Shown here piece by piece: positions 17,836 to 57,806 of a DNA stretch of 62,699 nt (position 1 is its first letter; each line of letters begins with the position of its first letter). This DNA comes from Thermoplasmata archaeon (GTDB lineage: Archaea > Thermoplasmatota > Thermoplasmata > Lutacidiplasmatales > UBA184): NCBI GenBank assembly GCA_050013595.1, contig JBEKEY010000003.1, positions 1 to 62,699 on the forward strand, read 5' to 3'. Under the pieces are notes generated by a model. The model was not told the origin of the DNA. It saw only the letters and a list, made by a program, of their open reading frames with translations, and searched no databases. Made by a program: the position numbers and the translations under genes.

Positions 17836-18279
17836 TTGACGGCGGTCGATGGTGCTCGAAGGTCCCGGCTCTTCGATCTCCGGACGTGGCACTGGATAGC
17901 ATTCGGAGTCTTCGTAGCGCTGACCGCCATGGTCGTGATGCTGGCGGTCCTCGCCGACCTGGGAACGGCAGGCGCACCGACGATCGCCGGAGGGCTGGCC
18001 CTCCCCGTCGAGGTATTCTTGGCGCTGGGGGCGGTCCTCGGTGTGACCGTGCTGTCCATGGTCATGCTGTACTGGGGATGGCCCTGGGAGAGCGGGGGGC
18101 CATCAGCCCGAGCCGCCGGCCCGGTCCGATGGGGCCGACCCGGAATTGACGACCCCGCGGTGATCCTCGCTCGCGAACGGTTCGCTCGAGGTGAGATCAC
18201 CCAAGAAGAGTACGATCAGACCTTGATCGATCTCGCGCGGCGAGGTCGGGGCCCCGGTGGGCCGCTCTCGGGTTCATGA
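17836..18279 (+). CDS. membrane protein with C-terminal SHOCT domain
   Basis: Two or three TM helices, then ILARERFARGEITQEEYDQTLIDL (SHOCT-like). Confidence 0.6.
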   Translation: MTAVDGARRSRLFDLRTWHWIAFGVFVALTAMVVMLAVLADLGTAGAPTIAGGLALPVEVFLALGAVLGVTVLSMVMLYWGWPWESGGPSARAAGPVRWGRPGIDDPAVILARERFARGEITQEEYDQTLIDLARRGRGPGGPLSGS

Positions 18280-18368: not shown

Positions 18369-18385
18369 AGGTGCAGGGGGTGTGA
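18369..18385. repeat. direct repeat copying the 3' end of tRNA-Leu(GAG) (att-like, left)
   Basis: AGGTGCAGGGGGTG is identical to 28956-28969, and 16 of 17 positions match over 18369-18385 against 28956-28972. With gaps, similarity extends into a decayed T-arm (GGAG..GA..TTCA..CACCCCC). Confidence 0.5.
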
Positions 18386-18528
18386 ATCCTCCTTTGGTTC
18401 AGTTCATCGCACCGCCGGGCAGCAATCCCTCCCCCGGGGCGACCACCCCTTACACAACCCTCTAGTCAGACAAAGGTCAGCGACCCGGGGGAAGGAGCCG
18501 GACCCACACTAGCCGCCCCTTGACGAAA

Positions 18529-18582
18529 GACGCGCGCGGCCGATAATGGGATCGCAATCTGCGCGCGGGACCGGACAAATGG
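18529..18582 (+). repeat. GC-clamped hairpin motif, copy A
   Basis: GACGCGCGCGGCCGATAATGGGATCGCAATCTGCGCGCGGGACCGGACAAATGG. Confidence 0.8.
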
Positions 18583-18726
18583 CATGCGCTATTAGTCGGT
18601 GGATGCGACGTGGTCTCGAAACAGGCGAGATGCGATCCCACGGACTACGGCGTCAACGGGCCGGGTCGTGTCGATTCCGATACCTCAATCGAATCCAGAG
18701 GCTTGGGCATAGACTCTCTTCGTTGC

Positions 18727-18948
18727 TCATGGTTTGACCAATTTCCGCTTGAAAAAATAGGCGATTGCACTGGTCACCCAAGCAATCACCAATCCGATCC
18801 CAATTCCCTTCAGGTAGAGGCTGCCGGTAAGATAGGACAATGAAAGGAAGACCCCGCTCAGAACCAACTCGAACACGATGAGCACCGTATCCAACCTTCT
18901 CAAAAGGGCAACTCGCCATGGTGACCCGAGGATGCTGTTTTTCTCCAT
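18727..18948 (-). CDS. small two-TM membrane protein
   Basis: 73 aa, two hydrophobic helices, low GC. Lies between motif copies A and B. Confidence 0.45.
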   Translation of the reverse strand: MEKNSILGSPWRVALLRRLDTVLIVFELVLSGVFLSLSYLTGSLYLKGIGIGLVIAWVTSAIAYFFKRKLVKP

Positions 18949-19084
18949 GTTTTTCTTCCCCGGTTCTCGTAGGACTTTCGGCTAGGGTGAGCGTTCGAGG
19001 CATGAAACTGCGATGCCTCTTATGCGTGTGTACTCCGGGTCATCGTCCTCGACTGACGCGACATGGAGTGCTGGCTAGATCTGG

Positions 19085-19130
19085 GACGCGCGCGGCCGAT
19101 GGCATGACCGCAATCAGCGCGCGAGGACGG
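19085..19130 (+). repeat. GC-clamped hairpin motif, copy B
   Basis: GACGCGCGCGGCCGATGGCATGACCGCAATCAGCGCGCGAGGACGG. Confidence 0.8.
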
Positions 19131-19204
19131 GATGCGCCCCGGCCCTGCGGATTCATACGAGCCCGCGAGCGGGTAAGCGGTAGTTACACTCTCATTACGA
19201 GGGA

Positions 19205-19627
19205 TTGCCTCGGCACGATGCCATGCGAGGGCAGCTCGACACGTCGGCCGACCTTTCCCAGCGGACGGCGATGGTCCTGCTGGCACTGTTCATAGTCGCG
19301 GTAATTGCTGCGCTGGCGGTCACCCTGTACTCAGCAGCGGCGCCCGTCGGGCTCCTCGCGACCGCCGCTGTGGCCCCAATCATCGTTCTGACCCTGCTCT
19401 TCCTTTACTTCGAGCGTCGGCGTCGGCCCTGGAGCTTTGCCGGGGCCGCTGCCTTGGGGATCTTGGGAGTAACACTCCGTCTGATCGTCAACACTCAACC
19501 GCAACTGGAAGTTGGAGGCGGGTTGCCTCTCTGGGTGACAGTAACCTACGTCACCCTGGGGACCCTAGTGGTTGTGACAAGCCTCTGGGCGTTTCTCTCC
19601 TTGAGGCGGGCCAATCGCCCGGGCTAG
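19205..19627 (+). CDS. four-TM membrane protein, unknown function
   Basis: Hydrophobic profile only. The start may be an internal Met. Confidence 0.5.
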   Translation: MPRHDAMRGQLDTSADLSQRTAMVLLALFIVAVIAALAVTLYSAAAPVGLLATAAVAPIIVLTLLFLYFERRRRPWSFAGAAALGILGVTLRLIVNTQPQLEVGGGLPLWVTVTYVTLGTLVVVTSLWAFLSLRRANRPG

Positions 19628-19687
19628 TGGGGCCGTCCTCCCTCCTCGGCCTAGCAATCGCTACGAGGTCCCTTTGGTCGAACGGTC

Positions 19688-19975
19688 TCACCGCGACGCG
19701 GTCCAAACCACCGCGCCCAGGCCGGTGGTTTCGCAGAGGCCGATCCCAAAAAGGAACGGGGCGAACGAATCCGGAATGATGGGCATGGAAGCGAGGTAGG
19801 AGTAGACGGTCAGGCCGCTTTGGATCACGAAAGCAGCGGCAAAGACGAGCAAAGCAAGGCCGAAGCCGGTTCGTGTCTGGGCATACAATTTGCGATAGAG
19901 GACGAACAGCATCCCCGCGAGAACGATGCTGACCACACCCAGGATGACACTTGCGTCCATGAGCAAGTTGCTCAT
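19688..19975 (-). CDS. three-TM membrane protein coupled to the ArsR-like gene
   Basis: The ATG at 19975 overlaps the stop of the upstream HTH gene by 4 nt. MSNLLMDASVILGVVSIVLAGMLF... Confidence 0.55.
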   Translation of the reverse strand: MSNLLMDASVILGVVSIVLAGMLFVLYRKLYAQTRTGFGLALLVFAAAFVIQSGLTVYSYLASMPIIPDSFAPFLFGIGLCETTGLGAVVWTASR

Positions 19976-20325
19976 CGAACCACCTCGAGCCTGTGCCGAA
20001 GGGGGTGCGCCCCGCGGGAGCTGGGGACCAAGCCTCGGCGATTCCACAGGACCTCCTGCAGGTCCTGGAAGTGCTCCGCCAAGTAGGGCGACAGCTCGTA
20101 CGGCGCCGCATACGCATCACCGACCGGGCGGGCCACGGCTCCGTTCTGCTCGAGGAGTCGAAGGTGGTGCCGTACCGTCCGATAATCCAGCTCGAGGGAC
20201 GAGGAGAGCTGATGCGCGTTCGCGGGGGACTGGCTTAGTTCCTCGAGAATCCTCAGGCGGTTTGGTCCTCCCCGGGTTCCGCAAAGGAGGTACCACATCA
20301 GGGAGCGGAACCCGGGGCTCATCAT
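19972..20325 (-). CDS. ArsR-family winged-helix regulator
   Basis: RLRILEELSQSPANAHQLSSSLELDYRTVRHHLRLLEQNG. Confidence 0.75.
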   Translation of the reverse strand: MMSPGFRSLMWYLLCGTRGGPNRLRILEELSQSPANAHQLSSSLELDYRTVRHHLRLLEQNGAVARPVGDAYAAPYELSPYLAEHFQDLQEVLWNRRGLVPSSRGAHPLRHRLEVVR

Positions 20326-20397
20326 GCGGGGATGGCGAGAGAGACACTCCTTATCAATCGCACCTCCCCCGCAAATCGATCGACATTCTCACCGACC

Positions 20398-21558
20398 TCA
20401 GAACGCAGCCAGACCTTCGGCCGTGGCCGGCAGTCCGAAGACGTCGTACTGGAGGGTCAAGCTCGCGCCCGACCCGACCCCGAACTCCTGGATCTCCCCT
20501 GCCCCTGCGTCGTAGACGAACAACAGTTGGCCGTGAGCACCACCGACGGCCATGTCGGTATCGGCCGGTCCGGTGGAGGCCGCCACGGCCACGAGGAGTG
20601 TGAGAGCTCCGCCGGGGCCGACAGCGTACGTGGAGATTGTGCTGCCGTGCGCGTTCGATGTAAACGCGAACCGCCCACCATCGACGGTCGCCACCCAGCA
20701 AGGGGCCGCCTGCCCATCCGAAAGGGCAGGGGTCTTCACTGTGAGAGTGCCCGAGGACGATACTATGTACGATGTCAGGGCCCCTGACGCCGCGTCGCTT
20801 ACGATCAGGCTACCATCGCGACCGAACGCGAAGCCGTACGGCGTATAGCCGTTCGAGGCTGTGACCGTCGGAGCCGAGGCATATCCTCGGTAATCAACGG
20901 TGTACGTGTCCAACACGCTCGTGTTCTTCTCGGTGACGACCAGAACCGACCCGGAGGGATCGAACGAGATCTGCGCTGGAGCGGTCGACGCGCTGGTGCT
21001 CAGGGGCCGGCTCGACCCGGGCAGCGGGAAGATGACGCCGTGGTCCGCGCGATAGAACCCGAAGATGTTGCCCGGAACGAGGGAGGTTCCCGCGTTCAGC
21101 ACGTAGACGAAGGGGCCGTGGATTGCGATACTCACCGGGAGCACCCCGTGGGAGCTGACCGCATCGATGAACGTAAGCAGGGGTCCGCCTCCCGAGGGCG
21201 AGTTCACGTGGAAGACTGAAATCGTGTTGCTTCCGGCATTCACCCCTAGGAGATACTGGTGGTCGGCCGTCAATGCGACCGAACCCGAATCGGCGAGGCT
21301 GACTCCAGTCCCCTTCCCGTGGGTGGAGAACTGGCCTGCCGGAATGAGTGAGCCACCCGGCCCAATCACATATCCTACGATCGCGTTGCCGCTCGGGGCG
21401 TTGGTCATCGTAAAGACGGCCCCGTGCGTTCCGATGGTCAGGTCGGCACTGATCTCCGAGCTGGACGTCGTCACCGTTCGGGCAGCGGCCCCGCTCGACA
21501 CGACGAACAACACGGCGGCTACTATAGGCAGGACCCAGAGCAATCTCGTTCTCGGCAT
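20398..21558 (-). CDS. secreted lactonase-like 7-bladed beta-propeller protein
   Basis: Signal/TM peptide at the N-terminus. Repeated ...YVLNAG.., ..VVTEKN.., ..LIVSDA.. blades. Confidence 0.65.
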   Translation of the reverse strand: MPRTRLLWVLPIVAAVLFVVSSGAAARTVTTSSSEISADLTIGTHGAVFTMTNAPSGNAIVGYVIGPGGSLIPAGQFSTHGKGTGVSLADSGSVALTADHQYLLGVNAGSNTISVFHVNSPSGGGPLLTFIDAVSSHGVLPVSIAIHGPFVYVLNAGTSLVPGNIFGFYRADHGVIFPLPGSSRPLSTSASTAPAQISFDPSGSVLVVTEKNTSVLDTYTVDYRGYASAPTVTASNGYTPYGFAFGRDGSLIVSDAASGALTSYIVSSSGTLTVKTPALSDGQAAPCWVATVDGGRFAFTSNAHGSTISTYAVGPGGALTLLVAVAASTGPADTDMAVGGAHGQLLFVYDAGAGEIQEFGVGSGASLTLQYDVFGLPATAEGLAAF

Positions 21559-21701
21559 GGTGCTCGGCCAGGCGGACCCCGAGGCATAAGGGAAGAGCAG
21601 TTTCGTACCCCAACCCGGCCCAAATTCATACCGAGTTCGGCCCTAATCAGTTCGACGAAGCTGTCATCCCTGTGTGACCCTAGTCGGCGGAGGCGGGAGC
21701 G

Positions 21702-22328
21702 TTGACCGCGAATCCACTGATCGAAGGAATCGTGATCTTCGCGGTGGTTGCAGTACTGCAACTTCCCGGCAAATCGAACTTCGGCGTCATTACTCTCTCG
21801 ACGCGCCACCCACATCGGGACGTTTTCATCGGGGCGTCCGTCGGCCTGGGAGCGGCGACCGTGGTCTCGGTCACGATCGGATACGGTGCTGAAACCGTTC
21901 TCGGCCCGTACCTCGTTTGGGTGAAGGTGGTCGGGGGGCTAGTTCTTGTCGCGTTCGGACTTCGAGAGATTCTGAGAGTTCCGGTCCCGGTTCACGAGCC
22001 GGGCGAGGGGACTCCAGCGGTAGCACAGACCACGAGACAAGTTCGGACCGTGGCCCTCGGGCTCGCGTTCCTGCTCGAGATGGGCGACAATACGCAGATC
22101 CTAGCCATCCTGTTCGTCGCCTCGACGGGCAACGTGGTGCTCGTATTCGTCTCGGCGACCGCGGCATTGGTGACGATCACGGCGATCTCCTCCCGCGGGG
22201 CAAGTTACCTTCACGAACACGTTCCGGAGGAGCGCCTCCGAGTGGTCTTGGGCGGACTGCTGATCACGGTGGGGTTGCTAACGATTCTCTTCACAGCCCT
22301 TCCCTCCCTTCTTCCGTTCGCTGGTTGA
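21702..22328 (+). CDS. UPF0016 / GDT1 (TMEM165) family cation transporter
   Basis: Six TM helices. The second E-x-G-D-x-T motif is intact (LEMGDNTQ). The first is degenerate (LQLPGKSN). Confidence 0.7.
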   Translation: MTANPLIEGIVIFAVVAVLQLPGKSNFGVITLSTRHPHRDVFIGASVGLGAATVVSVTIGYGAETVLGPYLVWVKVVGGLVLVAFGLREILRVPVPVHEPGEGTPAVAQTTRQVRTVALGLAFLLEMGDNTQILAILFVASTGNVVLVFVSATAALVTITAISSRGASYLHEHVPEERLRVVLGGLLITVGLLTILFTALPSLLPFAG

Positions 22329-22439
22329 TCGGCGACTCGGAAGAGATCGTCAGCTGACCCAAGATACACCCTGTGCGCGACCCATTGCGTTGGCCTGCCA
22401 TAGTACGGTGGAACGCTCAACTCTCGAATCGAACCGGAC

Positions 22440-23120
22440 TTACGGTAGCACCAGCGCGGTGGTGACCCCCGAGTAGTGGTCGGTTCCGAGGGCGACAACG
22501 TAGTTGCCTTGACTCGGGAACCAACTGCCGGTCGGCGTCCCCGTCCCGATGACGATGAACATCGTCGATGTGATTGGGCTCGAGGTGGAGTACCCGGCCC
22601 CGATCGTGAACGTGCTGGTCATTGCGAGACCGGCGTTCGCGACGAACGAATAATACGCTACCGGAACGATGCCCGTTATGGGCATGACGGCGAATCCAGC
22701 GGCGACAGTGTTCTTGAATACGGAACCGGCCGCGGTCTTGACTTCGAGCAGGACATCACCCAAGGTGACCGTCGACGTCTGGATGCTCAGGTTAAAGATT
22801 CGGTTACCGACGGCACCACAAACATGATTCGTGACCCCGGCTGCCCAGCACGTGCCTGGCGCCGGGGTCCCGACCGCGAAGGCGCTGCCGATGGGCTTCG
22901 ATCCCACGGAGCCCGTCAGGCCCGAGATCATAACATACAGAACGGCCGCCAGCACTACCGTGATCGCGACGAGCAATATCGTCGCAATGATTGGCGACAC
23001 TGCTCGGCGTCGACGCCGAAAGCTTCCCGCTGAGACCCTGCTGCGGCTCCACCCGTTTCCGTTCTGCCTCATGGGATCGATCGAGACGCGGGCACCCCTC
23101 TCTCGAGGCGGTGTCCTCAC
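22440..23120 (-). CDS. archaeal type IV pilin-like protein (class III signal peptide, DUF1628-like)
   Basis: RRRRAVSPIIATILLVAITVVLAAVLYV N-terminus. Confidence 0.65.
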   Translation of the reverse strand: MRTPPRERGARVSIDPMRQNGNGWSRSRVSAGSFRRRRRAVSPIIATILLVAITVVLAAVLYVMISGLTGSVGSKPIGSAFAVGTPAPGTCWAAGVTNHVCGAVGNRIFNLSIQTSTVTLGDVLLEVKTAAGSVFKNTVAAGFAVMPITGIVPVAYYSFVANAGLAMTSTFTIGAGYSTSSPITSTMFIVIGTGTPTGSWFPSQGNYVVALGTDHYSGVTTALVLP

Positions 23121-23223
23121 CGGACGTACTGTTTGGCTGTAGGGGTTATTTACCAGTTATCGTCGCACCCGAAACGGATCTGAACTGGCTGGGAACCGAC
23201 GTATACGCGGAGCACGCGAGGAT

Positions 23224-24094
23224 TCACTTCGCGAGTTGCTCACGGATTGATAGCAACTCCTGCCGGTGCTCCTTTGTCGTCTCGGGGTAGGTCAACTTGA
23301 GCCCTTCCAACGTATCGAGGACGATCTGGGACACGATCAGGCGAGCGTTCTCCTTGTCGTCGGCCGGAACGACATACCAAGCGGCTTCCTTCGTGGAGGT
23401 AGCACTCAGGCATTCCCCGAAGGCCTTCATGTAGCGTTTCCAGAATTTCCGTTCCTCGATATCCGCCGGGCTGACCTTCCGGTTCTTGGACGGATCGTCA
23501 ATGCGCTCGAGAAAGCGCTTCCGCTGCTCCTCCTTCGAGAGGTGGAGATAGAACTTGATGATACGGGTGCCATTCTCGTAGAGGTGTCTCTCCAAGTTCG
23601 CGATCGAACGATATCGTTCCTTCCAGACTGTCGCGCCGTCCGGGTGGGCATCCGGGACCCCTTCGCGGCGCAGGTCTTCCGGATGCACCCGGACGACCAG
23701 CACGTCCTCGTAGTAGGACCGGTTGAAGATGCCGATCTGTCCACGCTCGGGTAGGTCTCGAGAAGTCCGCCAGAGGAAGTCGTGCCGTAACTCGGTGGGT
23801 GTAGGCTGCTTGAAGCTGGACACCTGGCAGCCTTGGGGGCTGACCCCGGACATCACGTGGTTGATGGCGCCGTCTTTACCGGCCGCGTCCATGCCCTGGA
23901 AGATCAACAGGACGGCGTACCGGTCGGAGGCGAAGAGCCGCTCCTGCAGCGAACTCAGTTTCCGAATGTGCCGGTCGAGCAGGTGTTGATACCTGTTCCT
24001 TCGACTTGGTGAAGGGCTCGACGGTGGTCGGCCACTTCCGGAGGTCGACTTGAGCGCCCTCGCTGACACGGAAATCCTTTGAACGGATCTTCAT
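23224..24094 (-). pseudogene. ppk2: polyphosphate kinase 2 interrupted by a 1-nt frameshift
   Basis: The N-terminus [34 protein letters not shown] is in the frame of track ORF 23876..24130. The remainder, YQHLLDR...GMDAAGKDG..., is in the frame of 23224..24069. The frames meet at 23989-23995 (sense CAGGTAT). Confidence 0.7.
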
Positions 24095-24136
24095 TTTCTT
24101 TCCCTCGGTGGTCCGGACAGGCAGGGCCACAGCGGT

Positions 24137-26770
24137 TCATCCGGGGAGATTTTCATTCCGGACCTCCCGCTCCGCTTCCAACCAATCTTGATTCGCTTGG
24201 CCCTCCTTGCGGCCTTCGCGCTCATAGAGCTCGTACGCACGAGTGGCGATCTGGGGTGTCAGATCCGACGATGGCTTGGCCTTGGCGGAGCCGGGCTTGC
24301 CCTTTGGCGGATCGATGAAGCGATACGCGAGCAGCTTTAGGCGGTCTGTCGCGAGGAACCAAGCCATGGCGTAGCCCCAAACGAACAACGCGAGGCCCCA
24401 CCCGATCGGTGCCATGAGCACCCCATAGACGGCCAGCAGTATCGCGAGCGCTTGCGCGCCGAAAACGGCCACCACAAGGATTCGCGCGGGACGTAGGGAC
24501 CAGAACGGTCCGTGCGTGCGGGTCAGGAAGATCGTCATGTGTCCGGCCACGCACAGCATCAGGAACATCAGCGTCTCGAGTTGCAAGTGGTTAAGGACGA
24601 AAATGCGGTCCCCAATGTAGAACAGACCGAACGCAGCCACGGGGCCGACGACGCCCAGCACCGTGGCGATCCGGAGGACTTGGCGCATGTTCCAGCCCTC
24701 GGGCCGGTCGGCGGGCAGTACGTTGTCGTAGGCGATGGACAGCATGGCGGTGTCGTTGAGGAGCGCCAAAACCACGATCATGACCGCGGTCACGGGGAAG
24801 AAATTGAAGATCAGGATTGCCAGCGAGATGAACAACAATACACGCAGCGTCTCCGAGATTCGGTAGATCGCGTAGCTTCTCATCCGCTGGATGATCTTTC
24901 GGCTCTCTTTGATCGCGTCAATGATCACCGATAGGCCGGGTGCCATCAGCACGATGGCCGCCGCAGCGCGCGCCGCGTCGGTAGCGTTCGAAACGGCGAT
25001 GCCGCAGTCGGCCTTCTTGAGTGCCGGCGCGTCGTTCACCCCGTCGCCCGTCATGCCCACGATGTGGCCGCGCTGCTGCAGGATATCGACAATGTGGAAC
25101 TTGTGTTCGGGAAACACCTGGGCGAACCCATCCGCGTTCTCGATGGACGCCGCCAGCTGCGGCGAAGCCGGCTGCTTCATGTCGCCGAAGCCGCTCGCAT
25201 CGAGGATGTTGGTGCCCATTCCCAATTTCCGAGCGGTTTCCCGAGCGATCGCCAGTTGATCTCCGGTGACCATCTTGACCGGCACCCCCATATCTCGCGC
25301 GGTCGCGATGGTCGCCTCGGCGTCGTCCCTCGGCGGGTCGAACAGGGGCAGCACGCCCAGGAACTGCCATGGGCCGTCCGCCTCGGCCCGCGCCACTCCC
25401 AGCGAACGAAAACCGCGGGCCGCGAATTCGTCGACCGCCTTCTTCACAGCGGGCTTCACTTGCCCCGCGTTGGCGGTCAGTTCCAGAATCACCTGGGGCG
25501 CGCCTTTCGTCGACTTGAATTCCTTCCCCTCCGGACCTTTGACGGTGGCCTCGGTGCGCTTGTGCACCGGGTCGAATGGCTGGAAATGAACGACCTGGTA
25601 GCCTTTCAGGGCCTGGTCATTCTTCAAGCCGCCCAGAACGGCCAGGTCGATGGTGTCGTTATTCTCCGCGCGCGACGCCAGCGCGGCCGCGAGGATCACT
25701 TGCTCGGCGGGGACATTGTTCACCGTGAACGGATCGCCGAGCGTCAGCTTGTTTTGGGTCAGGGTGCCGGTCTTGTCCGCGCACAGAACATCCGCACCCG
25801 CCAATTCCTCGGTGGCCGCCAAGTGGGTCACGATCGCCTGCTTCTTGCCCAACATGCGCGCGCCGATCGCCATCGTCACCGACAGCACCGTGGGCATCGC
25901 TACGGGGATCGCGGCGACGGTCAGCACCAGGGCGAACTGCGTTGTAGTAAGAATCGGGTTGCCGCGGAAGATTGAGATGACGGTGACGGCCGAAACCAGA
26001 ACCACCGCGAGGATGATCAGGTAATTGCCGATCTTGAGCACCGCGCGCTGAAAGTGGCTCTTTGTGTGCGCTTCCTGGACCAGTTGCGCGGTCTTGCCGA
26101 AGTACGTCTTTGTACCCGTCGCGTAGACCAGGGCGTCGATCTCTCCCTGACGAATGATCGAGCCGGAAAACACCGCCTCGCCGGGCTTGCGCGTGACAGG
26201 CAACGACTCCCCCGTCAGCGCGGACTGGTCCACCTCCACCGGGTCGCCCGTCAGCAAACGTGCATCGGACGGCACGATGTCGCCGAGACGGACACGGATG
26301 ACATCCCCCGGCACCAGCTCCCGTGCTGCCGGTGTGATCCACTTCTCGTCGCGCTTTACCCGGGTCTTGACCGCCAGCGTGGCCTTCAGGGCCGCAATGA
26401 TGTCGCCCGCCTGGTGTTCTTCCCAGAACCCGACGCTCGCGTTGGCCACCAGAAGTAAGAGGATGATCCCGAAGTCGAGCCAATTCCCGGCGACCGCGGA
26501 TAGGATCACGGCGGCTTCAATCATCCACGGGATGGGACCCCAGAAATAGGCGAGGAATTTCCGGAGCGGATTGACCTTTTCTTCTTCGATCTCGTTGGGC
26601 CCGTATTGGGTCAACCGTCTTGTCGCCTCGGCCTGGCTGAGGCCGGCCGGGGACGACCCCAATCTCTTCTCCACCTCTGCTAGGGGCAGGGATTTCAAGT
26701 CGTCCGGCCCATCGGACCTCGAGCCCGGCTTTGATTCGAGGACCTTGGACGGGCCGGAGTTGAGTGTCAT
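24137..26770 (-). CDS. P-type (type IIIA-like) H+-transporting ATPase with DUF2934-like C-terminal tail
   Basis: DKTGTLT, TGDQ and GDGVNDAPALKKA motifs. N-terminus is plasma-membrane H+-ATPase-like. Tail is ATRAYELYEREGRKEGQANQDWLEAEREV. Confidence 0.9.
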   Translation of the reverse strand: MTLNSGPSKVLESKPGSRSDGPDDLKSLPLAEVEKRLGSSPAGLSQAEATRRLTQYGPNEIEEEKVNPLRKFLAYFWGPIPWMIEAAVILSAVAGNWLDFGIILLLLVANASVGFWEEHQAGDIIAALKATLAVKTRVKRDEKWITPAARELVPGDVIRVRLGDIVPSDARLLTGDPVEVDQSALTGESLPVTRKPGEAVFSGSIIRQGEIDALVYATGTKTYFGKTAQLVQEAHTKSHFQRAVLKIGNYLIILAVVLVSAVTVISIFRGNPILTTTQFALVLTVAAIPVAMPTVLSVTMAIGARMLGKKQAIVTHLAATEELAGADVLCADKTGTLTQNKLTLGDPFTVNNVPAEQVILAAALASRAENNDTIDLAVLGGLKNDQALKGYQVVHFQPFDPVHKRTEATVKGPEGKEFKSTKGAPQVILELTANAGQVKPAVKKAVDEFAARGFRSLGVARAEADGPWQFLGVLPLFDPPRDDAEATIATARDMGVPVKMVTGDQLAIARETARKLGMGTNILDASGFGDMKQPASPQLAASIENADGFAQVFPEHKFHIVDILQQRGHIVGMTGDGVNDAPALKKADCGIAVSNATDAARAAAAIVLMAPGLSVIIDAIKESRKIIQRMRSYAIYRISETLRVLLFISLAILIFNFFPVTAVMIVVLALLNDTAMLSIAYDNVLPADRPEGWNMRQVLRIATVLGVVGPVAAFGLFYIGDRIFVLNHLQLETLMFLMLCVAGHMTIFLTRTHGPFWSLRPARILVVAVFGAQALAILLAVYGVLMAPIGWGLALFVWGYAMAWFLATDRLKLLAYRFIDPPKGKPGSAKAKPSSDLTPQIATRAYELYEREGRKEGQANQDWLEAEREVRNENLPG

Positions 26771-26964
26771 GCTAGGAATCCTTCTCCCGTTTGAAATCAG
26801 GGAGGAGTCGTAGTTTGTGACCTACTCGATGTGACTTTTAGACGCTTTCCACGGGGACCTCATACTTCTGAGGCCGCGCTAAGTTTCGGATGCTCCGTCG
26901 ACAAAAGCGCGTCATGTGCCACCCACGCGGGGGCCCTGGCCACCGCCTCGCCGGGTCGTAATGG

Positions 26965-27014
26965 GGGCGCGGCCGATGACGAGACCGCGAGGAGCGCGTG
27001 CCGGGACGAAATCG
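26965..27014 (+). repeat. GC-clamped hairpin motif, copy D (most divergent)
   Basis: GGGCGCGGCCGATGACGAGACCGCGAGGAGCGCGTGCCGGGACGAAATCG. Confidence 0.65.
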
Positions 27015-27148
27015 AACTCGGAGGAATAATAAATGATTGGACCGTCCACCCCGCCTCTCTCGATGGTTACGAGGGAAAGACCCGTCGCGCGTAAGGGCCA
27101 CGCGCACGACGAGTAGCGGAATTCGCTCCGGAATCAACCTTCTGGAAA

Positions 27149-28561
27149 GTGCCTTACGGTGCGGTGGTCACCCGGGACAGGTCCTGGATGACACTTCTGC
27201 ATCTTGCCAGCCTCCCGCTCGCCCTGCTCCTAGTTGGCCTCGCTTTGCTTCTCGGCTTTGGCGCAGACTATCTTGCGGAGCGGTTTCGGATTCCGGACGC
27301 CCTGTGGTTGATGGCCCTTGGGGTTCTGGTCGGTCCAATCCTCGGCCTCATCACGAGCTCCGAGGTGCTCGTCGTCGCGCCGATCCTGGGGACGGCGGTC
27401 CTCGTCATTATTCTGTTCGATGCCGGCCTGGACATGCGGTCACATCTGATCCGGCCGTTCCTCGGCTCCACAGTCGCCTTCGCGGTCGTGACTTTCGTCC
27501 TCAGCGCGACGATGATGTTCGCGGCCGGGTACTGGCTCCTCTTTCCCGGCCACGCCGACCTTGCGCTGTACTTCGGAGCGGCGTTGGGGGCTACCTCGGG
27601 CGCGATCGCAATCCCAATCGCTACCCGCATGGGGCTGGCCCCGCCCCTCCGCGGCTTCATCCACCTCGAGGCCTCGATCGAAGACACGCTCGCCATCATC
27701 TCCGCGACGTTCATCCTCCTCGTGGTGACGCCGGGAGGCGATCTCTCCCGCCTCGACCTCGTTCTCGCGCTCTCCCTCCCCGTGCCGGTCGGAATCGTCG
27801 TCGGATTCCTCGGCGCGGTCGGTTGGTTGCTCCTCTTCTCCCGATGGCAGGAGCGGCAGTACGCGGCCCTCGCCACGCTCGGGTACGTGCTCGTGGTCTA
27901 CGGCGTCGCCGTCTTGTTCGGGGGGTCCGGCATCTTCGCGGCACTGATCTTGGGAATCGTGATCGCCAACTCCTTCGCGCTCCGACGGTTCCTCCCGTGG
28001 ATCCAACCGTTCGAGATGATCCAGAGCGTGCGCGCAGTGCAGACCGAGGTGGCATTCCTCCTTCGGGCCCTCTTCCTGTTCCTCCTCGGTACACTAGTCG
28101 TGCTGGTGAGCCCGGGTCTCGTGCCGCTTCTTGCCATCGTCGTGTTATCGGTCGCGGTCCTGGGGGTTCGGTACTTCACCGCGGAGGCACTGGCTGCGGT
28201 GCACCGGCTCCCGTCGACCTGGTCCGCCTCCTTGGGCGGTCTCGGTGGCCGAGGGTTGACGACCGCCGTCCTGCTCGTTCTCCCCCTCGGAATCATCCCC
28301 GGTGCGGTCCATTTGTTCCTGCCCGGGGTCATCCTGGTGTTCGGGACCGACATCGCGATGACCGTCTGGCTCGCGATCCTGGGACGGCGGGTACCGACGT
28401 CCGGACCTCAGCCCGGTGCAGAGCTGTATGCGCCGGTAGCGGCCCAGCTCCCGCTCCTCGAGCAACTGGCGATGGAGGATACCGGCCGGTGGGTCCCGTC
28501 GTTCCTGTCGCCCGAGGCCGTGAAACCGGCGCGCGGAAAACCGCCGACCCCTCCGCCGTAA
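27149..28561 (+). CDS. monovalent cation/H+ antiporter (CPA1/NhaP-like)
   Basis: 470 aa, about 12 TM helices, Na_H_exchanger-like pattern (ILFDAGLDM, ATSGAIA). Confidence 0.8.
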   Translation: MPYGAVVTRDRSWMTLLHLASLPLALLLVGLALLLGFGADYLAERFRIPDALWLMALGVLVGPILGLITSSEVLVVAPILGTAVLVIILFDAGLDMRSHLIRPFLGSTVAFAVVTFVLSATMMFAAGYWLLFPGHADLALYFGAALGATSGAIAIPIATRMGLAPPLRGFIHLEASIEDTLAIISATFILLVVTPGGDLSRLDLVLALSLPVPVGIVVGFLGAVGWLLLFSRWQERQYAALATLGYVLVVYGVAVLFGGSGIFAALILGIVIANSFALRRFLPWIQPFEMIQSVRAVQTEVAFLLRALFLFLLGTLVVLVSPGLVPLLAIVVLSVAVLGVRYFTAEALAAVHRLPSTWSASLGGLGGRGLTTAVLLVLPLGIIPGAVHLFLPGVILVFGTDIAMTVWLAILGRRVPTSGPQPGAELYAPVAAQLPLLEQLAMEDTGRWVPSFLSPEAVKPARGKPPTPPP

Positions 28562-28620
28562 TTTGAACCGCCCATGTTTTCGAGTACGTCGCGTCTTCGC
28601 GATGGGATTTTCCACGGGGT

Positions 28621-28735
28621 GGGTGCGGGGAGAGGGATTTGAACCCCTCCGGGGAGATGTAGGAGGGGAACACGGCTGAATGGTTCTAGTCCCACGCACG
28701 GTAGTCAACTAGAGACCGACCCCTGTCCGGACGTG
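28621..28735 (-). other. tRNA-like fragment (T-arm plus acceptor-like 3' end) that does not fold as a complete tRNA
   Basis: The minus-sense sequence ...GGAGGGGTTCAAATCCCTCTCCCCGCACCC has a T-loop and acceptor-like tail. I could not build an anticodon arm or a D-arm by hand. Confidence 0.3.
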
Positions 28736-28796
28736 AGAGTGCATTCGGATCCGGGCAAGGTGACGGCGACCGCGTGCCTCTGCGAACCTTACTTGG

Positions 28797-28848
28797 GACG
28801 CGCGCGACCGATGAGCGGACCGCAATCAGCGCGCGGACCGTGAAATGG
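28797..28848 (+). repeat. GC-clamped hairpin motif, copy C
   Basis: GACGCGCGCGACCGATGAGCGGACCGCAATCAGCGCGCGGACCGTGAAATGG. Confidence 0.8.
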
Positions 28849-28955
28849 TTGACGCCATGCCCGTGCACCGTGACGAGCCCCCCATCACGAAACTCACCCC
28901 TTTCCAAACGCTTCGTTGACGGAGGAGCCGAGCGTTTAACGAAGATCGAGAGGAA

Positions 28956-28972
28956 AGGTGCAGGGGGTGAGA
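28956..28972. repeat. direct repeat at the 3' end of tRNA-Leu(GAG) (att-like, right)
   Basis: AGGTGCAGGGGGTGAGA. Partner is at 18369-18385. Confidence 0.5.
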
Positions 28973-29043
28973 TTTGAACTCACGGACTCCTACGAGACTA
29001 GGACCTCAACCTAGCGCCTTTGACCAAGCTGGGCCACCCCTGC
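28959..29043 (-). tRNA. tRNA-Leu (anticodon GAG)
   Basis: Hand fold: GCAGGGG-TG-GCC..GGC-G-CTAGG-TTGAGGT-CCTAG-long variable arm (TCTCGTAGGAGTCC)-GTGAG-TTCAAAT-CTCAC-CCCCTGC-A. Confidence 0.85.
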
Positions 29044-57535: not shown

Positions 57536-57639
57536 GCCGCCGTAGCTCAGCGGCAGAGCGATCGGCTGTTAACCGAAAGGTCAGCGGTTCGAAAGGGCGG
57601 CGGCAACTTCCCGCCGCCCCTAAACTCCGCTCGGCGGCG
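57536..57639 (+). tRNA. tRNA-Asn (anticodon GTT) with a 32-nt insert (putative intron) in the T-loop
   Basis: GCCGCCG-TA-GCTC-AGCGGCA-GAGC-G-ATCGG-CTGTTAA-CCGAA-AGGTC-AGCGG-TTCGAA[57594-57625]T-CCGCT-CGGCGGC-G. T-arm and acceptor are perfect only if the insert is removed. Confidence 0.75.
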
Positions 57640-57658
57640 CCTCCGCATCCTTCCTGCT

Positions 57659-57733
57659 GGGCCCGTAGCTTAGCCCGATTAGAGCGACCGGCTCATAACC
57701 GGTCGGTCGGCGGTTCAAATCCGCCCGGGCCCA
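57659..57733 (+). tRNA. tRNA with CAT anticodon (elongator Met or Ile2)
   Basis: GGGCCCG-TA-GCTT..AGAGC-G-ACCGG-CTCATAA-CCGGT-CGGTC-GGCGG-TTCAAAT-CCGCC-CGGGCCC-A. Lies 19 nt after tRNA-Asn. Confidence 0.85.
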
Positions 57734-57806
57734 TTCACGCTCGGCTCGTCTCGCGCCCGAGCCTCACGGACCGAAACTTTACGGTCGGACGGCAATCGCC
57801 TCGTCC

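Follow-up and report, generated by a model that had tools for sequence, protein, structure and literature searches.

Sequence comparison indicates that sites of about 60 bases, four of which lie in the stretch of DNA analysed here (62,699 nt, the window), are a previously undescribed family in the Thermoplasmata of soil and peat. The motif is, on balance, probably the boundary and recombination site of an integron-like, non-homologous system of gene-cassette arrays in high-GC members of this group. A first-pass annotation of the window had offered a reading of this kind, with attC-like, co-oriented cassette sites. Its essence survives in the co-oriented arrays, the roughly one gene per interval, the platform gene and the homology that ends at the motif; the sites lack the attC core boxes, and no integron recombinase is linked to the arrays.

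Four sites in a tRNA-Leu island

The sequence GCGCGRCCGATNNNNNGAYCGC has exact matches in the window at 18534, 19090, 26967 and 28802. When up to two mismatches are allowed there are six matches against 0.58 expected, and none of 100 shuffles reaches six. A profile built from the copies of relatives gives the four sites E-values of 1e-14 to 1e-8, and the next-best match in the window has E ~0.4-0.5; there are therefore exactly four window copies, all inside a 10.6-kb island at tRNA-Leu. The same search finds no copy in the 52 kb of the window outside the island, which is low in GC (~0.62 vs ~0.69 outside). The features are as follows.

18369-18385, + strand: 17-nt direct repeat (AGGTGCAGGGGGTGTGA) of the 3' end of tRNA-Leu, marking the left edge of the island; repeat family D13; GC falls from here
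18519-18582, + strand: site copy A (E 7e-12), with degenerate box CTTGACGAAAG, 5' GC arm, CCGATAATGGGA, TCGC, AATCT and 3' GC arm
18583-19074, no strand: interval A-B, a one-gene module with the 73-aa membrane ORF (18727-18948, - strand)
19075-19130, + strand: site copy B (E 2e-14), of the four the nearest to the family consensus (GATGGCATGACCGCAATCAGCGCGCG)
19131-26951, no strand: interval B-D, a 7.8-kb multi-gene block (134-aa ORF, DUF8036, ArsR-type HTH, lactonase, GDT1, pilin, PPK2, P-type ATPase)
26952-27014, + strand: site copy D (E 1e-8), GAGGA subtype, with 5' arm and box degenerate
27015-28786, no strand: interval D-C, a one-gene module with the Na+/H+ exchanger (27188-28561, + strand)
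28787-28848, + strand: site copy C (E 7e-13), AATCA subtype
28956-29043, - strand: tRNA-Leu(GAG), whose 3' end (28956-28972) serves as the right-hand repeat of the island

All four copies are found on the + strand where the first-pass annotation had put them, and independent JGI gene calls on identical contigs confirm that they are intergenic. Copy A is flanked by a SHOCT gene (17836-18279) and the 73-aa ORF, B by that ORF and the 134-aa ORF (19223-19627), D by the P-type ATPase (24137-26770, - strand) and the Na+/H+ exchanger, and C by the exchanger and tRNA-Leu (28957-29043, - strand). As had been proposed, A and B thus bracket the 73-aa membrane ORF, which the gene calls put alone between them, and D and C bracket the antiporter, the sole gene of their interval. 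The distances of A and C from the tRNA-derived repeats (143 and 107 nt inside them) are also as first given. A and C are not the most similar pair, as had been thought; A-C, A-B and B-C are about equal, at 0.77-0.81 over the core. Within the window the motif is indeed confined to the island; beyond the window it is a widespread family. Interval A-B has a size typical of that family. The profile search finds no degenerate copy inside interval B-D, and a comparable interval of 7.6 kb has been observed at another locus (L134).

The site family and its arrays

More than 200 copies at more than 60 loci have been detected by exact pattern scan and profile search, in at least 25 species-level Thermoplasmata genomes and in peat and soil metagenomes. 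In the exact scan, with one genome per species, the motif with shared long flanks is found only in Thermoplasmata MAGs (about 25 genomes); bacterial matches share no flanks, and viral contigs have no match. An Rfam scan, a check proposed with the first description of the motif, finds no matching family, with nothing on the window at the gathering score or E<=10 and nothing at E<=0.1 on seven loci holding about 45 copies.

The consensus, from 199 distinct copies, describes a full site of about 60 nt. An AT-richer box (CTTSATGWRGG) is followed by a GC arm (rCGCGCGCGG), CCGATGAC-nn-GA, CCGC, a 5-nt subtype block (AATCA, GATGA, GAGGA or GACAA) and a second GC arm. Compared with the architecture first described, conservation extends further 5', where relatives have the box, so that the copies start about 10 nt earlier than first given. 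Two other parts of that description do not hold in the wider family: the loop keeps GATGAC, with just two freely varying positions in place of five, and the 3' tail GGAC..AAAUG is common to window copies A, C and D only. Almost every copy keeps the two GA dinucleotides (185-194 of 199). The GAGGA subtype recurs among relatives, subtype in one half of the site goes with subtype in the other (mutual information 0.34 for columns 17 vs 36), and individual arrays carry their own loop signatures. Tandem and partial copies exist. In at least nine loci an insert of 57-60 nt sits exactly at the apex and is self-pairing; it consists of two hairpins, the second of which keeps its stem and varies in loop length. 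ORFs that open at the ATG of the motif are short and unconserved, and half of the copies have no start codon there. Two side observations concern the same parts of the site: some junctions show distinct 'left' (boxed AATCA) and 'right' (GAGGA) types, and the loop resembles a 5-nt duplication (ATGAC followed by ATGAC).

Two or more copies are present at 49 independent loci (182 copies in total). In 41 of the 49 they occupy a single strand, and neighbouring sites point the same way in 125 of 133 pairs; of the eight other pairs, seven owe their opposed orientation to an inverted short copy at the start of the head gene. Intervals between sites have a median of 705 nt (108 intervals, range 0.3-8 kb), and 60 of the 108 contain one called gene, the calls being in most loci the author's rough GC-frame calls. 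NCBI and JGI calls agree on one gene per interval at L133, which has 11 sites in 9 kb, and at L082. Genes show little preference for the strand of the sites (~55:45): 74 are on the same strand and 54 on the opposite one over all intervals, 33 and 27 in single-gene intervals, and 24 and 30 for the gene downstream of a site. This roughly even orientation is also borne out by the NCBI and JGI calls. The cargo includes small proteins without Pfam matches and glyoxalases.

At the head of the arrays is a conserved protein family of 170-315 aa, here called "MTAISA". Arrays begin about 150 nt upstream of the head gene and diverge from it, and its first codons, in the start codon region, repeat the site core in short, inverted form. 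The family occurs in 13 of 44 genome loci selected by the motif. Of 26 metagenome loci chosen by the gene alone, 18 have an opposite-strand site no more than about 175 nt upstream of it; a downstream position is seen only in L127/L129, two contigs of the same sequence. No conserved neighbour has been found on the other side of the gene, and a genome can have several such platforms. The head protein has no Pfam, PHROG or NCBIfam match, no sequence match in the PDB and no fold match at E<=0.001; its Foldseek list has weak, non-significant Cas2 matches among other small alpha/beta proteins. It combines a small alpha/beta domain with a helical one and has no known relatives. The family comprises at least 500 clusters, none annotated.

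No known recombinase is linked to the arrays; integrases and transposases are sporadic and kilobases away, for example a single Phage_integrase gene 9 kb from the array in one locus. Gene and domain calls show no Phage_integrase or IntI in the window island, and precomputed Pfam calls for about 100 kb around arrays, a partial screen of the ~0.6 Mb of context, show no Y1 or TnpB. The earlier statement that IntI and Y1 transposase are missing is correct for the window, and the array-adjacent gene of relatives is not a known recombinase.

Homology breakpoints and their explanation

Segments of homology between loci (at least 88% identity over at least 300 nt) tend to end at the sites. Of their internal ends, 17 of 33 are within 60 nt of a site, where 5.2% of positions lie, about ten times chance. 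Three segments have a site at each end (L073/L077, 1650 nt, 92%; L041/L061, 2287 nt, 96%; L029/L066, 382 nt, 91%). Platforms about 90% identical (L092, L093, L115 and L121; L100/L113) bear unrelated arrays past the first site. At higher resolution, L064 and L033 are 99-100% identical as far as the 3' arm and unrelated beyond, and L041 and L061 are identical through CCGATGA and then diverge. The exchange points are spread over box, apex and 3' arm with no single fixed base, a scatter that also fits ordinary homologous recombination between ~50-nt repeats. The linked site halves and the array-specific loop signatures mean that free central exchange is not the whole story. Among all flank pairs there is no 'empty' junction in which the two flanks are kept but the motif is missing, and near-identical contigs (the window locus, identical in three metagenomes, and L082-84) show no excision or insertion polymorphism.

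For the cassette-boundary reading a mechanism may be suggested. Recombination at the site would add, remove and swap modules, the exchange falling in or beside the GATGAC apex and the 3' arm, and the constant orientation would be the outcome of a site-specific reaction with a fixed direction. Sites may act as folded single strands, since a self-pairing insert of 57-60 nt is tolerated exactly at the apex; the 58-nt insertion variant hints at such a form. Candidate catalysts are the array-head protein and a recombinase acting in trans. The four sites of the window form a head-less cluster, carried on the island inserted at tRNA-Leu. A stronger version remains tentative and rather less than probable: integron-independent gene capture by a new single-strand-folded site with a variable apex and a new enzyme (MTAISA or a recruited partner), in which co-oriented, self-expressed one-gene modules are moved between species.

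It is unlikely that the motif is instead a DNA operator or promoter module and that modules are swapped only by ordinary homologous recombination. The box would then be an archaeal TATA element with a start about 29 nt downstream, near the nn of GAC-nn-GACC, and GACCGCAATCAGCGCG a shared leader or a binding site of the head protein, which would also bind its own start region. The box does resemble likely TATA boxes in the same genomes (CTTAAG, CTTAATC), and 29-30 nt downstream of it stands a conserved C with a purine after it (columns 24/25); the overlap of site core and head gene start codon would suit autoregulation by a DNA-binding protein, and conservation is in primary sequence, without covariation. 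However, site orientation is unrelated to genes by the counts given above for downstream genes and single-gene intervals, so that about half of the transcripts would be antisense or would meet a convergent gene head-on. The short, unconserved ORFs and the frequent lack of a start codon also speak against this reading, and both the one-strand arrays and the tolerance of a 58-nt insert between box and leader are left unexplained.

The chance is smaller again that the copies are small selfish elements of REP, MITE or PATE type, served by a single-strand DNA transposase in trans and oriented by replication. The orientation bias of IS608 and ISDra2, which in the IS200/IS605 group follows replication direction, predicts same-strand copies, and the copies here are intergenic, palindromic and same-strand, in places tandem or partial, with the apparent 5-nt duplication in the loop. 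But they are arrayed behind one gene family and not dispersed, with none in the rest of the window; homology is lost to one side of the motif and not around a simple indel, junctions with kept flanks and a missing motif are not seen, and the partial screen for Y1 and TnpB was negative.

The first-pass annotation had also seen the signature of a selected hairpin, which the wider sample does not bear out. Over 199 distinct copies the proposed pairs are no more frequent than independent columns predict (pair 16-29, 139 observed vs 139.1 expected, mutual information ~0), and no compensatory pairs occur in the 199 standard or nine expanded copies. The GC arms, which are closed in MFE folds, owe their pairing solely to an invariant alternating GC sequence, and fold energies are no better than those of shuffles (z from -1.4 to 0). 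Pair 16-29 is non-canonical in 60 of 199 copies without compensation; if it forms, the bulge is of 2 nt, not 3. The K-loop closing pair is missing in ~28% of copies. With orientation unrelated to neighbours and nothing in Rfam, the suggestion of a K-loop RNA bound by L7Ae gains no support either. A structured small RNA, with GC-clamped hairpin, GA..GA K-loop and variable apical domain, is very improbable, for although the near-invariant GA dinucleotides, the two-hairpin apical insert and the closed arms would suit it, fold energies, covariation, bulge and Rfam oppose it and it leaves arrays, head gene and homology breakpoints unaccounted for.

Relation to known systems

Cassette arrays built by site-specific recombination are, to our knowledge, known essentially from integrons, with one recombinase family and one site architecture. 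The same genomic logic (sites in one orientation, modules of one gene, a conserved gene at the head, clusters without a head and modules common to different species) is found here, yet neither the site nor the uncharacterised head gene is related to its integron counterpart. If recombination is confirmed, this would be a second, independently evolved platform for gene capture, a route of gene flow in abundant uncultured archaea of soil and peat, and a function for the unannotated head protein family. The motif is also a practical annotation marker of variable regions in these genomes. In the window it bounds modules with the ion-homeostasis genes of the island (Na+/H+ exchanger, P-type ATPase, GDT1, PPK2), on an element at tRNA-Leu.

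K-turn and K-loop RNAs (box C/D, H/ACA, RNase P; L7Ae) share the GAUGA...nnGA apex and the G+C closing helix. They differ in the bulge, the closing pair and covariation, the sites have no guide, D-box or ACA elements, and at the DNA level, in arrays and breakpoints, they do not behave like an RNA gene.

CRISPR arrays likewise have co-oriented, partly palindromic repeats of similar length beside a conserved 'leader' and gene, with array-specific repeat variants, a pattern compatible with site duplication at each insertion. CRISPR itself is rejected: the intervals of 0.3-8 kb bear genes, vs short spacers (~20-70 nt), and no cas domains are present in the array context tables.

IS200/IS605 ends, PATEs and REP/BIME with RAYT are also short intergenic repeats, same-strand and hairpin-capable, and the 'left' and 'right' site types recall LE/RE ends. 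In contrast to these, unique cargo and not a repeated element body lies between the sites, which are arrayed and not dispersed; among flank pairs no empty site was found, and the screened context around the arrays shows no Y1/TnpB.

Canonical integrons have been reported in Archaea (Ghaly et al. 2022, PMC9668308); the main text of that paper does not mention Thermoplasmata. An integron proper is rejected here, the array-head gene being no tyrosine recombinase (no IntI) and having no known domain. The attC architecture is R''-L''-loop-L'-R', with core sites RYYYAAC / GTTRRRY. Compared by eye with the published attC consensus, the 199-copy consensus has no AAC...GTT core pair, and its arms are alternating GC. 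Unlike those of integron cassettes, the genes between the sites face either way and do not follow a Pc promoter; the head gene has an inverted mini-site at its own start, and genomes have several platforms each.

The likeness to integrons, sedentary chromosomal ones and CALINs included, is in organisation. In both, one-orientation sites of ~60 nt with palindromic potential part mostly single-gene modules, and a divergent conserved gene heads the array. Clusters of attC without an integrase gene are known as CALINs, and the head-less clusters, as in the window, correspond to these. In Vibrio cholerae the attC repeats of the chromosomal integron, known as VCRs, are homogeneous, and the sites here are similarly so per array or lineage. 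The apex varies in length like the variable terminal structure of attC, the cargo is small and mostly of unknown function, and homologous cassettes are found in differing contexts, with their homology ending at the sites.

The site family and its four copies in the window

The motif is a repeat of about 60 nt in which an AT-richer box is followed by a 5′ GC arm, an apex or loop, a 5-nt subtype block and a 3′ GC arm. When one genome per prokaryotic species was scanned for the exact pattern, 81 loci were found. In the bacterial matches among these, similarity is confined to the pattern itself; in the ~44 loci that belong to some 25 Thermoplasmata MAGs (from soil, peat and acidic sites) it extends far past the pattern, and these loci have the consensus ..gCTTcATGaAGGaCGCGCGCGGCCGATGACnnGACCGCAATCAGCGCGCGgga in common. 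A 54-nt core profile detects 159 copies in the Thermoplasmata genome loci and 215 when metagenome loci are added (all carry L-numbers here). Zero matches were found in IMG/VR viral contigs, and a full-text search of the literature gave no description of the motif, its arrays or the protein family found at their start. Subtypes are told apart by the box (CATGAAGG, GATGTGGG, CAAGAAGG, TATCAGCG) and by the 5-nt block preceding the 3′ arm (AATCA, GATGA, GAGGA, GACAA), and loop signatures are array-specific.

Four copies (A, B, D and C, in order) were confirmed on the + strand of the window where the first-pass annotation had placed them, and its description of all four as intergenic is upheld by genes that JGI called independently on metagenome contigs of identical sequence. 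Exact matches to GCGCGRCCGATNNNNNGAYCGC are at 18534, 19090, 26967 and 28802; allowing two mismatches gives 6 matches against 0.58 expected from shuffles, and 0 of 100 shuffles reached 6. Scored with a profile made from the relatives, the copies have E values of 1e-14 to 1e-8, and nothing else in the 62.7-kb window beats E ~0.4. The same annotation had suggested an Rfam scan; run on the window, it gave no match to the motif, whether cut at the gathering score or relaxed to E ≤ 10.

The copies are held in a 10.6-kb island with a GC content of ~0.62 (0.69 outside), bracketed as follows.

Direct repeat bracketing the island
18369-18385 and 28956-28972: 17-nt direct repeat of the 3′ end of tRNA-Leu(GAG)
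18386-28955: island between the repeats

Copy A lies 143 nt and copy C 107 nt inside its respective repeat, so that the entire cluster can be taken as DNA inserted at the tRNA gene. Gene and domain calls place no integrase gene in the island. The head gene, which elsewhere marks the array start, is absent from the window by tblastn, and the four sites are a head-less cluster. Interval A-B contains a 73-aa membrane ORF, D-C a Na+/H+ exchanger, and B-D a 7.8-kb block of 8 genes within which a profile search found no degenerate site; a long interval resembling B-D is also present in locus L134. The arrangement is identical in three metagenomes, with no variants among them; a JGI contig of 256 kb, Ga0453630_0000045, contains the window.

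Most of the island cargo serves ion and phosphate homeostasis (GDT1, a P-type ATPase bearing a C-terminal DUF2934, the Na+/H+ exchanger, PPK2 and an ArsR-type regulator). At 28610-28650 (- strand sense), gggtgcggggagagggatttgaacccctcc resembles the T-arm and acceptor 3′ end of another tRNA; neither ARAGORN nor Rfam calls a full tRNA gene there, and the stretch could be what is left of an attachment site used in an earlier insertion within the island. Outside it, Rfam places a fourth tRNA at 57536-57605 (+, 41.8 bits), not reported by ARAGORN, directly upstream of tRNA-Met at 57658-57734.

Arrays and the head gene

The sites form co-oriented arrays. Two or more copies occur in 49 independent loci (182 copies in total); in 41 of these loci all copies are on one strand, and 125 of 133 adjacent site pairs are co-oriented; seven of the eight orientation exceptions are an inverted short copy at the start of the head gene. 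Sites are separated by a median of 705 nt (interquartile range 535-1377). Rough GC-frame gene calls assign a single gene to 60 of the 108 intervals and, overall, put 74 genes in the same direction as the sites and 54 opposite. In public annotation, the 9 kb of L133 that contain 11 sites have a single gene between neighbouring sites, with genes on both strands, and L082 has three one-gene intervals.

Some junctions are tandem doubles (L029 2644/2713 and 6680/6748; L033 6306/6237 and 5297). In these a box-less GAGGA-type site is followed, after ~15 nt, by a boxed AATCA-type site, and elsewhere a site is followed by a lone GACCGCGAGGAGCGCGCG half. Such tandem and half sites have the look of scars left by repeated events, or of module ends that come in separate 'right' and 'left' types.

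Arrays start at the head gene, which is divergent from the first site and ~150 nt from it. Clustering of flanking ORFs recovered this as one recurrent family, with the N-terminus MTA(I/M)SA. The gene opens with the codons ATGACCGCAATCAGCGC, which correspond to the 3′ half of the motif inverted and 5 nt shorter (CCGATGACCGC). When loci were selected by the protein alone, a site was present at most ~175 nt upstream on the opposite strand in 18 of the 26 with enough upstream sequence. Leading away from the gene, arrays contain as many as 8-11 sites; its downstream side has sites in L127/L129 only, a pair of contigs sharing one sequence. No recombinase is conserved beside the head gene, nor is any gene conserved on the side away from the array, and apart from large beta-propeller surface proteins no neighbour recurs.

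Features associated with the head gene
L002 6441-6554, L075 1411-1514, L028, L097, L012, L094: conserved leader between head gene and first site
L097 7593-8257 and 10001-10606, L064, L041, L034: tandem head genes
L089/L090, L099, L108 (three copies), L109, L114, L117, L133: large beta-propeller proteins, a few kb from the head gene on the non-array side

Conservation of the ~150-nt leader from one genome to another is 80-95%. Two direct GCCCGAGGGCGACC-like boxes lie in it, together with a second AT-richer box (CATCATGAGG / CTCTTGATGTT), and these boxes recall the accessory repeats of attI, the integron platform site. At the tandem loci two or three head-gene copies or fragments each have their own short array; platforms themselves thus seem to duplicate or insert side by side. 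The beta-propeller proteins (~900-1100 aa) have YNCE/NHL-type repeats and are almost without Pfam annotation.

The head family comprises 475 proteins at E ≤ 0.001 in a first search and 514 cluster representatives at 50% identity in an exhaustive profile search. All are labelled 'hypothetical' or nameless, and some genomes have several copies. Searches of Pfam, PHROGs, NCBIfam and PDB sequences were empty, and the longest relatives from the profile search show no informative fusions to Pfam domains. An AlphaFold2 model from a 40-sequence alignment (mean pLDDT 75) shows a disordered linker, rich in proline, that joins a confident small alpha/beta domain (residues ~21-84) to a confident helical domain (139-216); many family members are the C-terminal domain alone. 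Foldseek comparison of the model with the PDB gave nothing at E ≤ 0.001, the top matches, all above that value, being small alpha/beta proteins such as UreE, RRM domains and Cas2. A conserved H-A-W-H was considered as an HUH motif and ruled out by its spacing.

Homology breaks at the sites

Modules are shared between genomes with their boundaries at sites. In an all-loci pairwise megablast (segments of at least 88% identity and at least 300 nt), 17 of 33 internal segment ends are within 60 nt of a site, versus 5.2% of positions. Three segments shared between genomes of different species are site-bounded at both ends (1650 nt, 92%; 2287 nt, 96%; 382 nt, 91%). Where head genes are ~90% identical, the arrays are unrelated beginning at the first site. 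At single-base resolution, L064 and L033 show identity through the motif and no relation directly past the 3′ arm, L041 and L061 show identity as far as CCGATGA and have different 3′ halves thereafter, and L097 and L052, unrelated upstream, reach 98% identity once the motif begins.

These patterns are read, with moderate confidence, as those of recombination sites bounding mobile one-gene modules in an integron-like, non-homologous array system. Such a system would use a directional, site-specific reaction at the sites, perhaps with the site in a folded single-stranded form, and a presumed catalyst.

Exchange points occur in three parts of the site, namely box, apex and 3′ arm. A single crossover base cannot be fixed, with breaks at several places and a conserved motif that lengthens alignments, and no locus pair has an 'empty' junction in which both flanks are kept and the motif is absent. 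In CRISPR arrays the repeat is duplicated at insertion. The spread of exchange points and the array-specific loops leave room for a site duplication of this kind or for homologous recombination. A promoter or operator module swapped through ordinary homologous recombination would fit that spread, and is an unlikely account of site-bounded modules in arrays. A REP- or PATE-like selfish repeat, its orientation biased by replication, would give co-orientation; as the origin of arrays with a head gene and shared modules it is quite improbable, about as much so as something else not considered here.

Folding of the site and known systems

The first-pass annotation saw in the motif a selected hairpin, a reading that covariation in the larger alignment does not support. 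Among 199 distinct copies aligned with MAFFT, observed pairing equals the independent-column expectation for every pair of the proposed structure and of the alternative register (e.g., 139 versus 139.1 and 120 versus 120.8; mutual information <0.06). The closing position of the inner helix is variable (G140/A27/T23/C9) and never compensated, and the folds of single sequences do not improve on shuffles. The columns most strongly coupled are those linked by subtype, such as 5′ GGTC with 3′ GATGA. The K-loop also proposed there is opposed by both its bulge length and its closing pair and has no other support. A structured small RNA is the least probable of the explanations considered.

Three further candidates were rejected. 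For a box C/D sRNA, the motif lacks a correctly ordered D or D′ box. For a riboswitch or 5′-UTR regulator of ion transporters, site orientation is independent of downstream genes and the cargo of relatives is diverse and unrelated. Leaderless ORFs from ATGACCGCAATC (MTAISAR...) are short and unconserved, with the start codon missing in half of the copies.

An expanded form of the site is present in at least nine loci.

Loci with expanded sites
L002: two copies, 2944 and 4958 (- strand read)
L015, L019, L033, L036, L064, L068, L079: expanded site

The usual 5′ half to CCGA is followed by 57-60 nt and then by the usual 3′ half, GACnnGACCGCAATCAGCGCGCG. The insert, GTCGGGGAGGC-loop-GCCTCC-rCGAGC-GGACGAA-loop-TTCGTCC-AGA (across loci, GTCGGGGAGGC..GCCTCC..GGACGAA..TTCGTCCAGA), takes the place of one apex base and forms two hairpins, of which the second stem is retained with a loop of 7 to 13 nt. 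It has no Rfam match, and RNAalifold on nine similar expanded copies showed no compensatory change. The insertion point coincides with several homology breaks (CGAT|GA). Since a 58-bp insert would split a duplex binding site and not the tip of a folded strand, this architecture hints that folding of the site may still matter. The apical insert parallels the variable terminal structure of attC, the integron cassette site, where a tip of variable length is a feature.

That these sites might belong to a mechanistically new capture system is a tentative proposal. The archaeal integrons of Ghaly et al. are canonical IntI/attC systems, and Thermoplasmata are unmentioned in the main text of that paper (PMC9668308). 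Unlike an integron, the system described here has no IntI integrase next to its arrays, no attC core sequences and no uniform cassette orientation. What it has in common with one is the plan of cassette arrays, which here too would be bounded by recombination sites.
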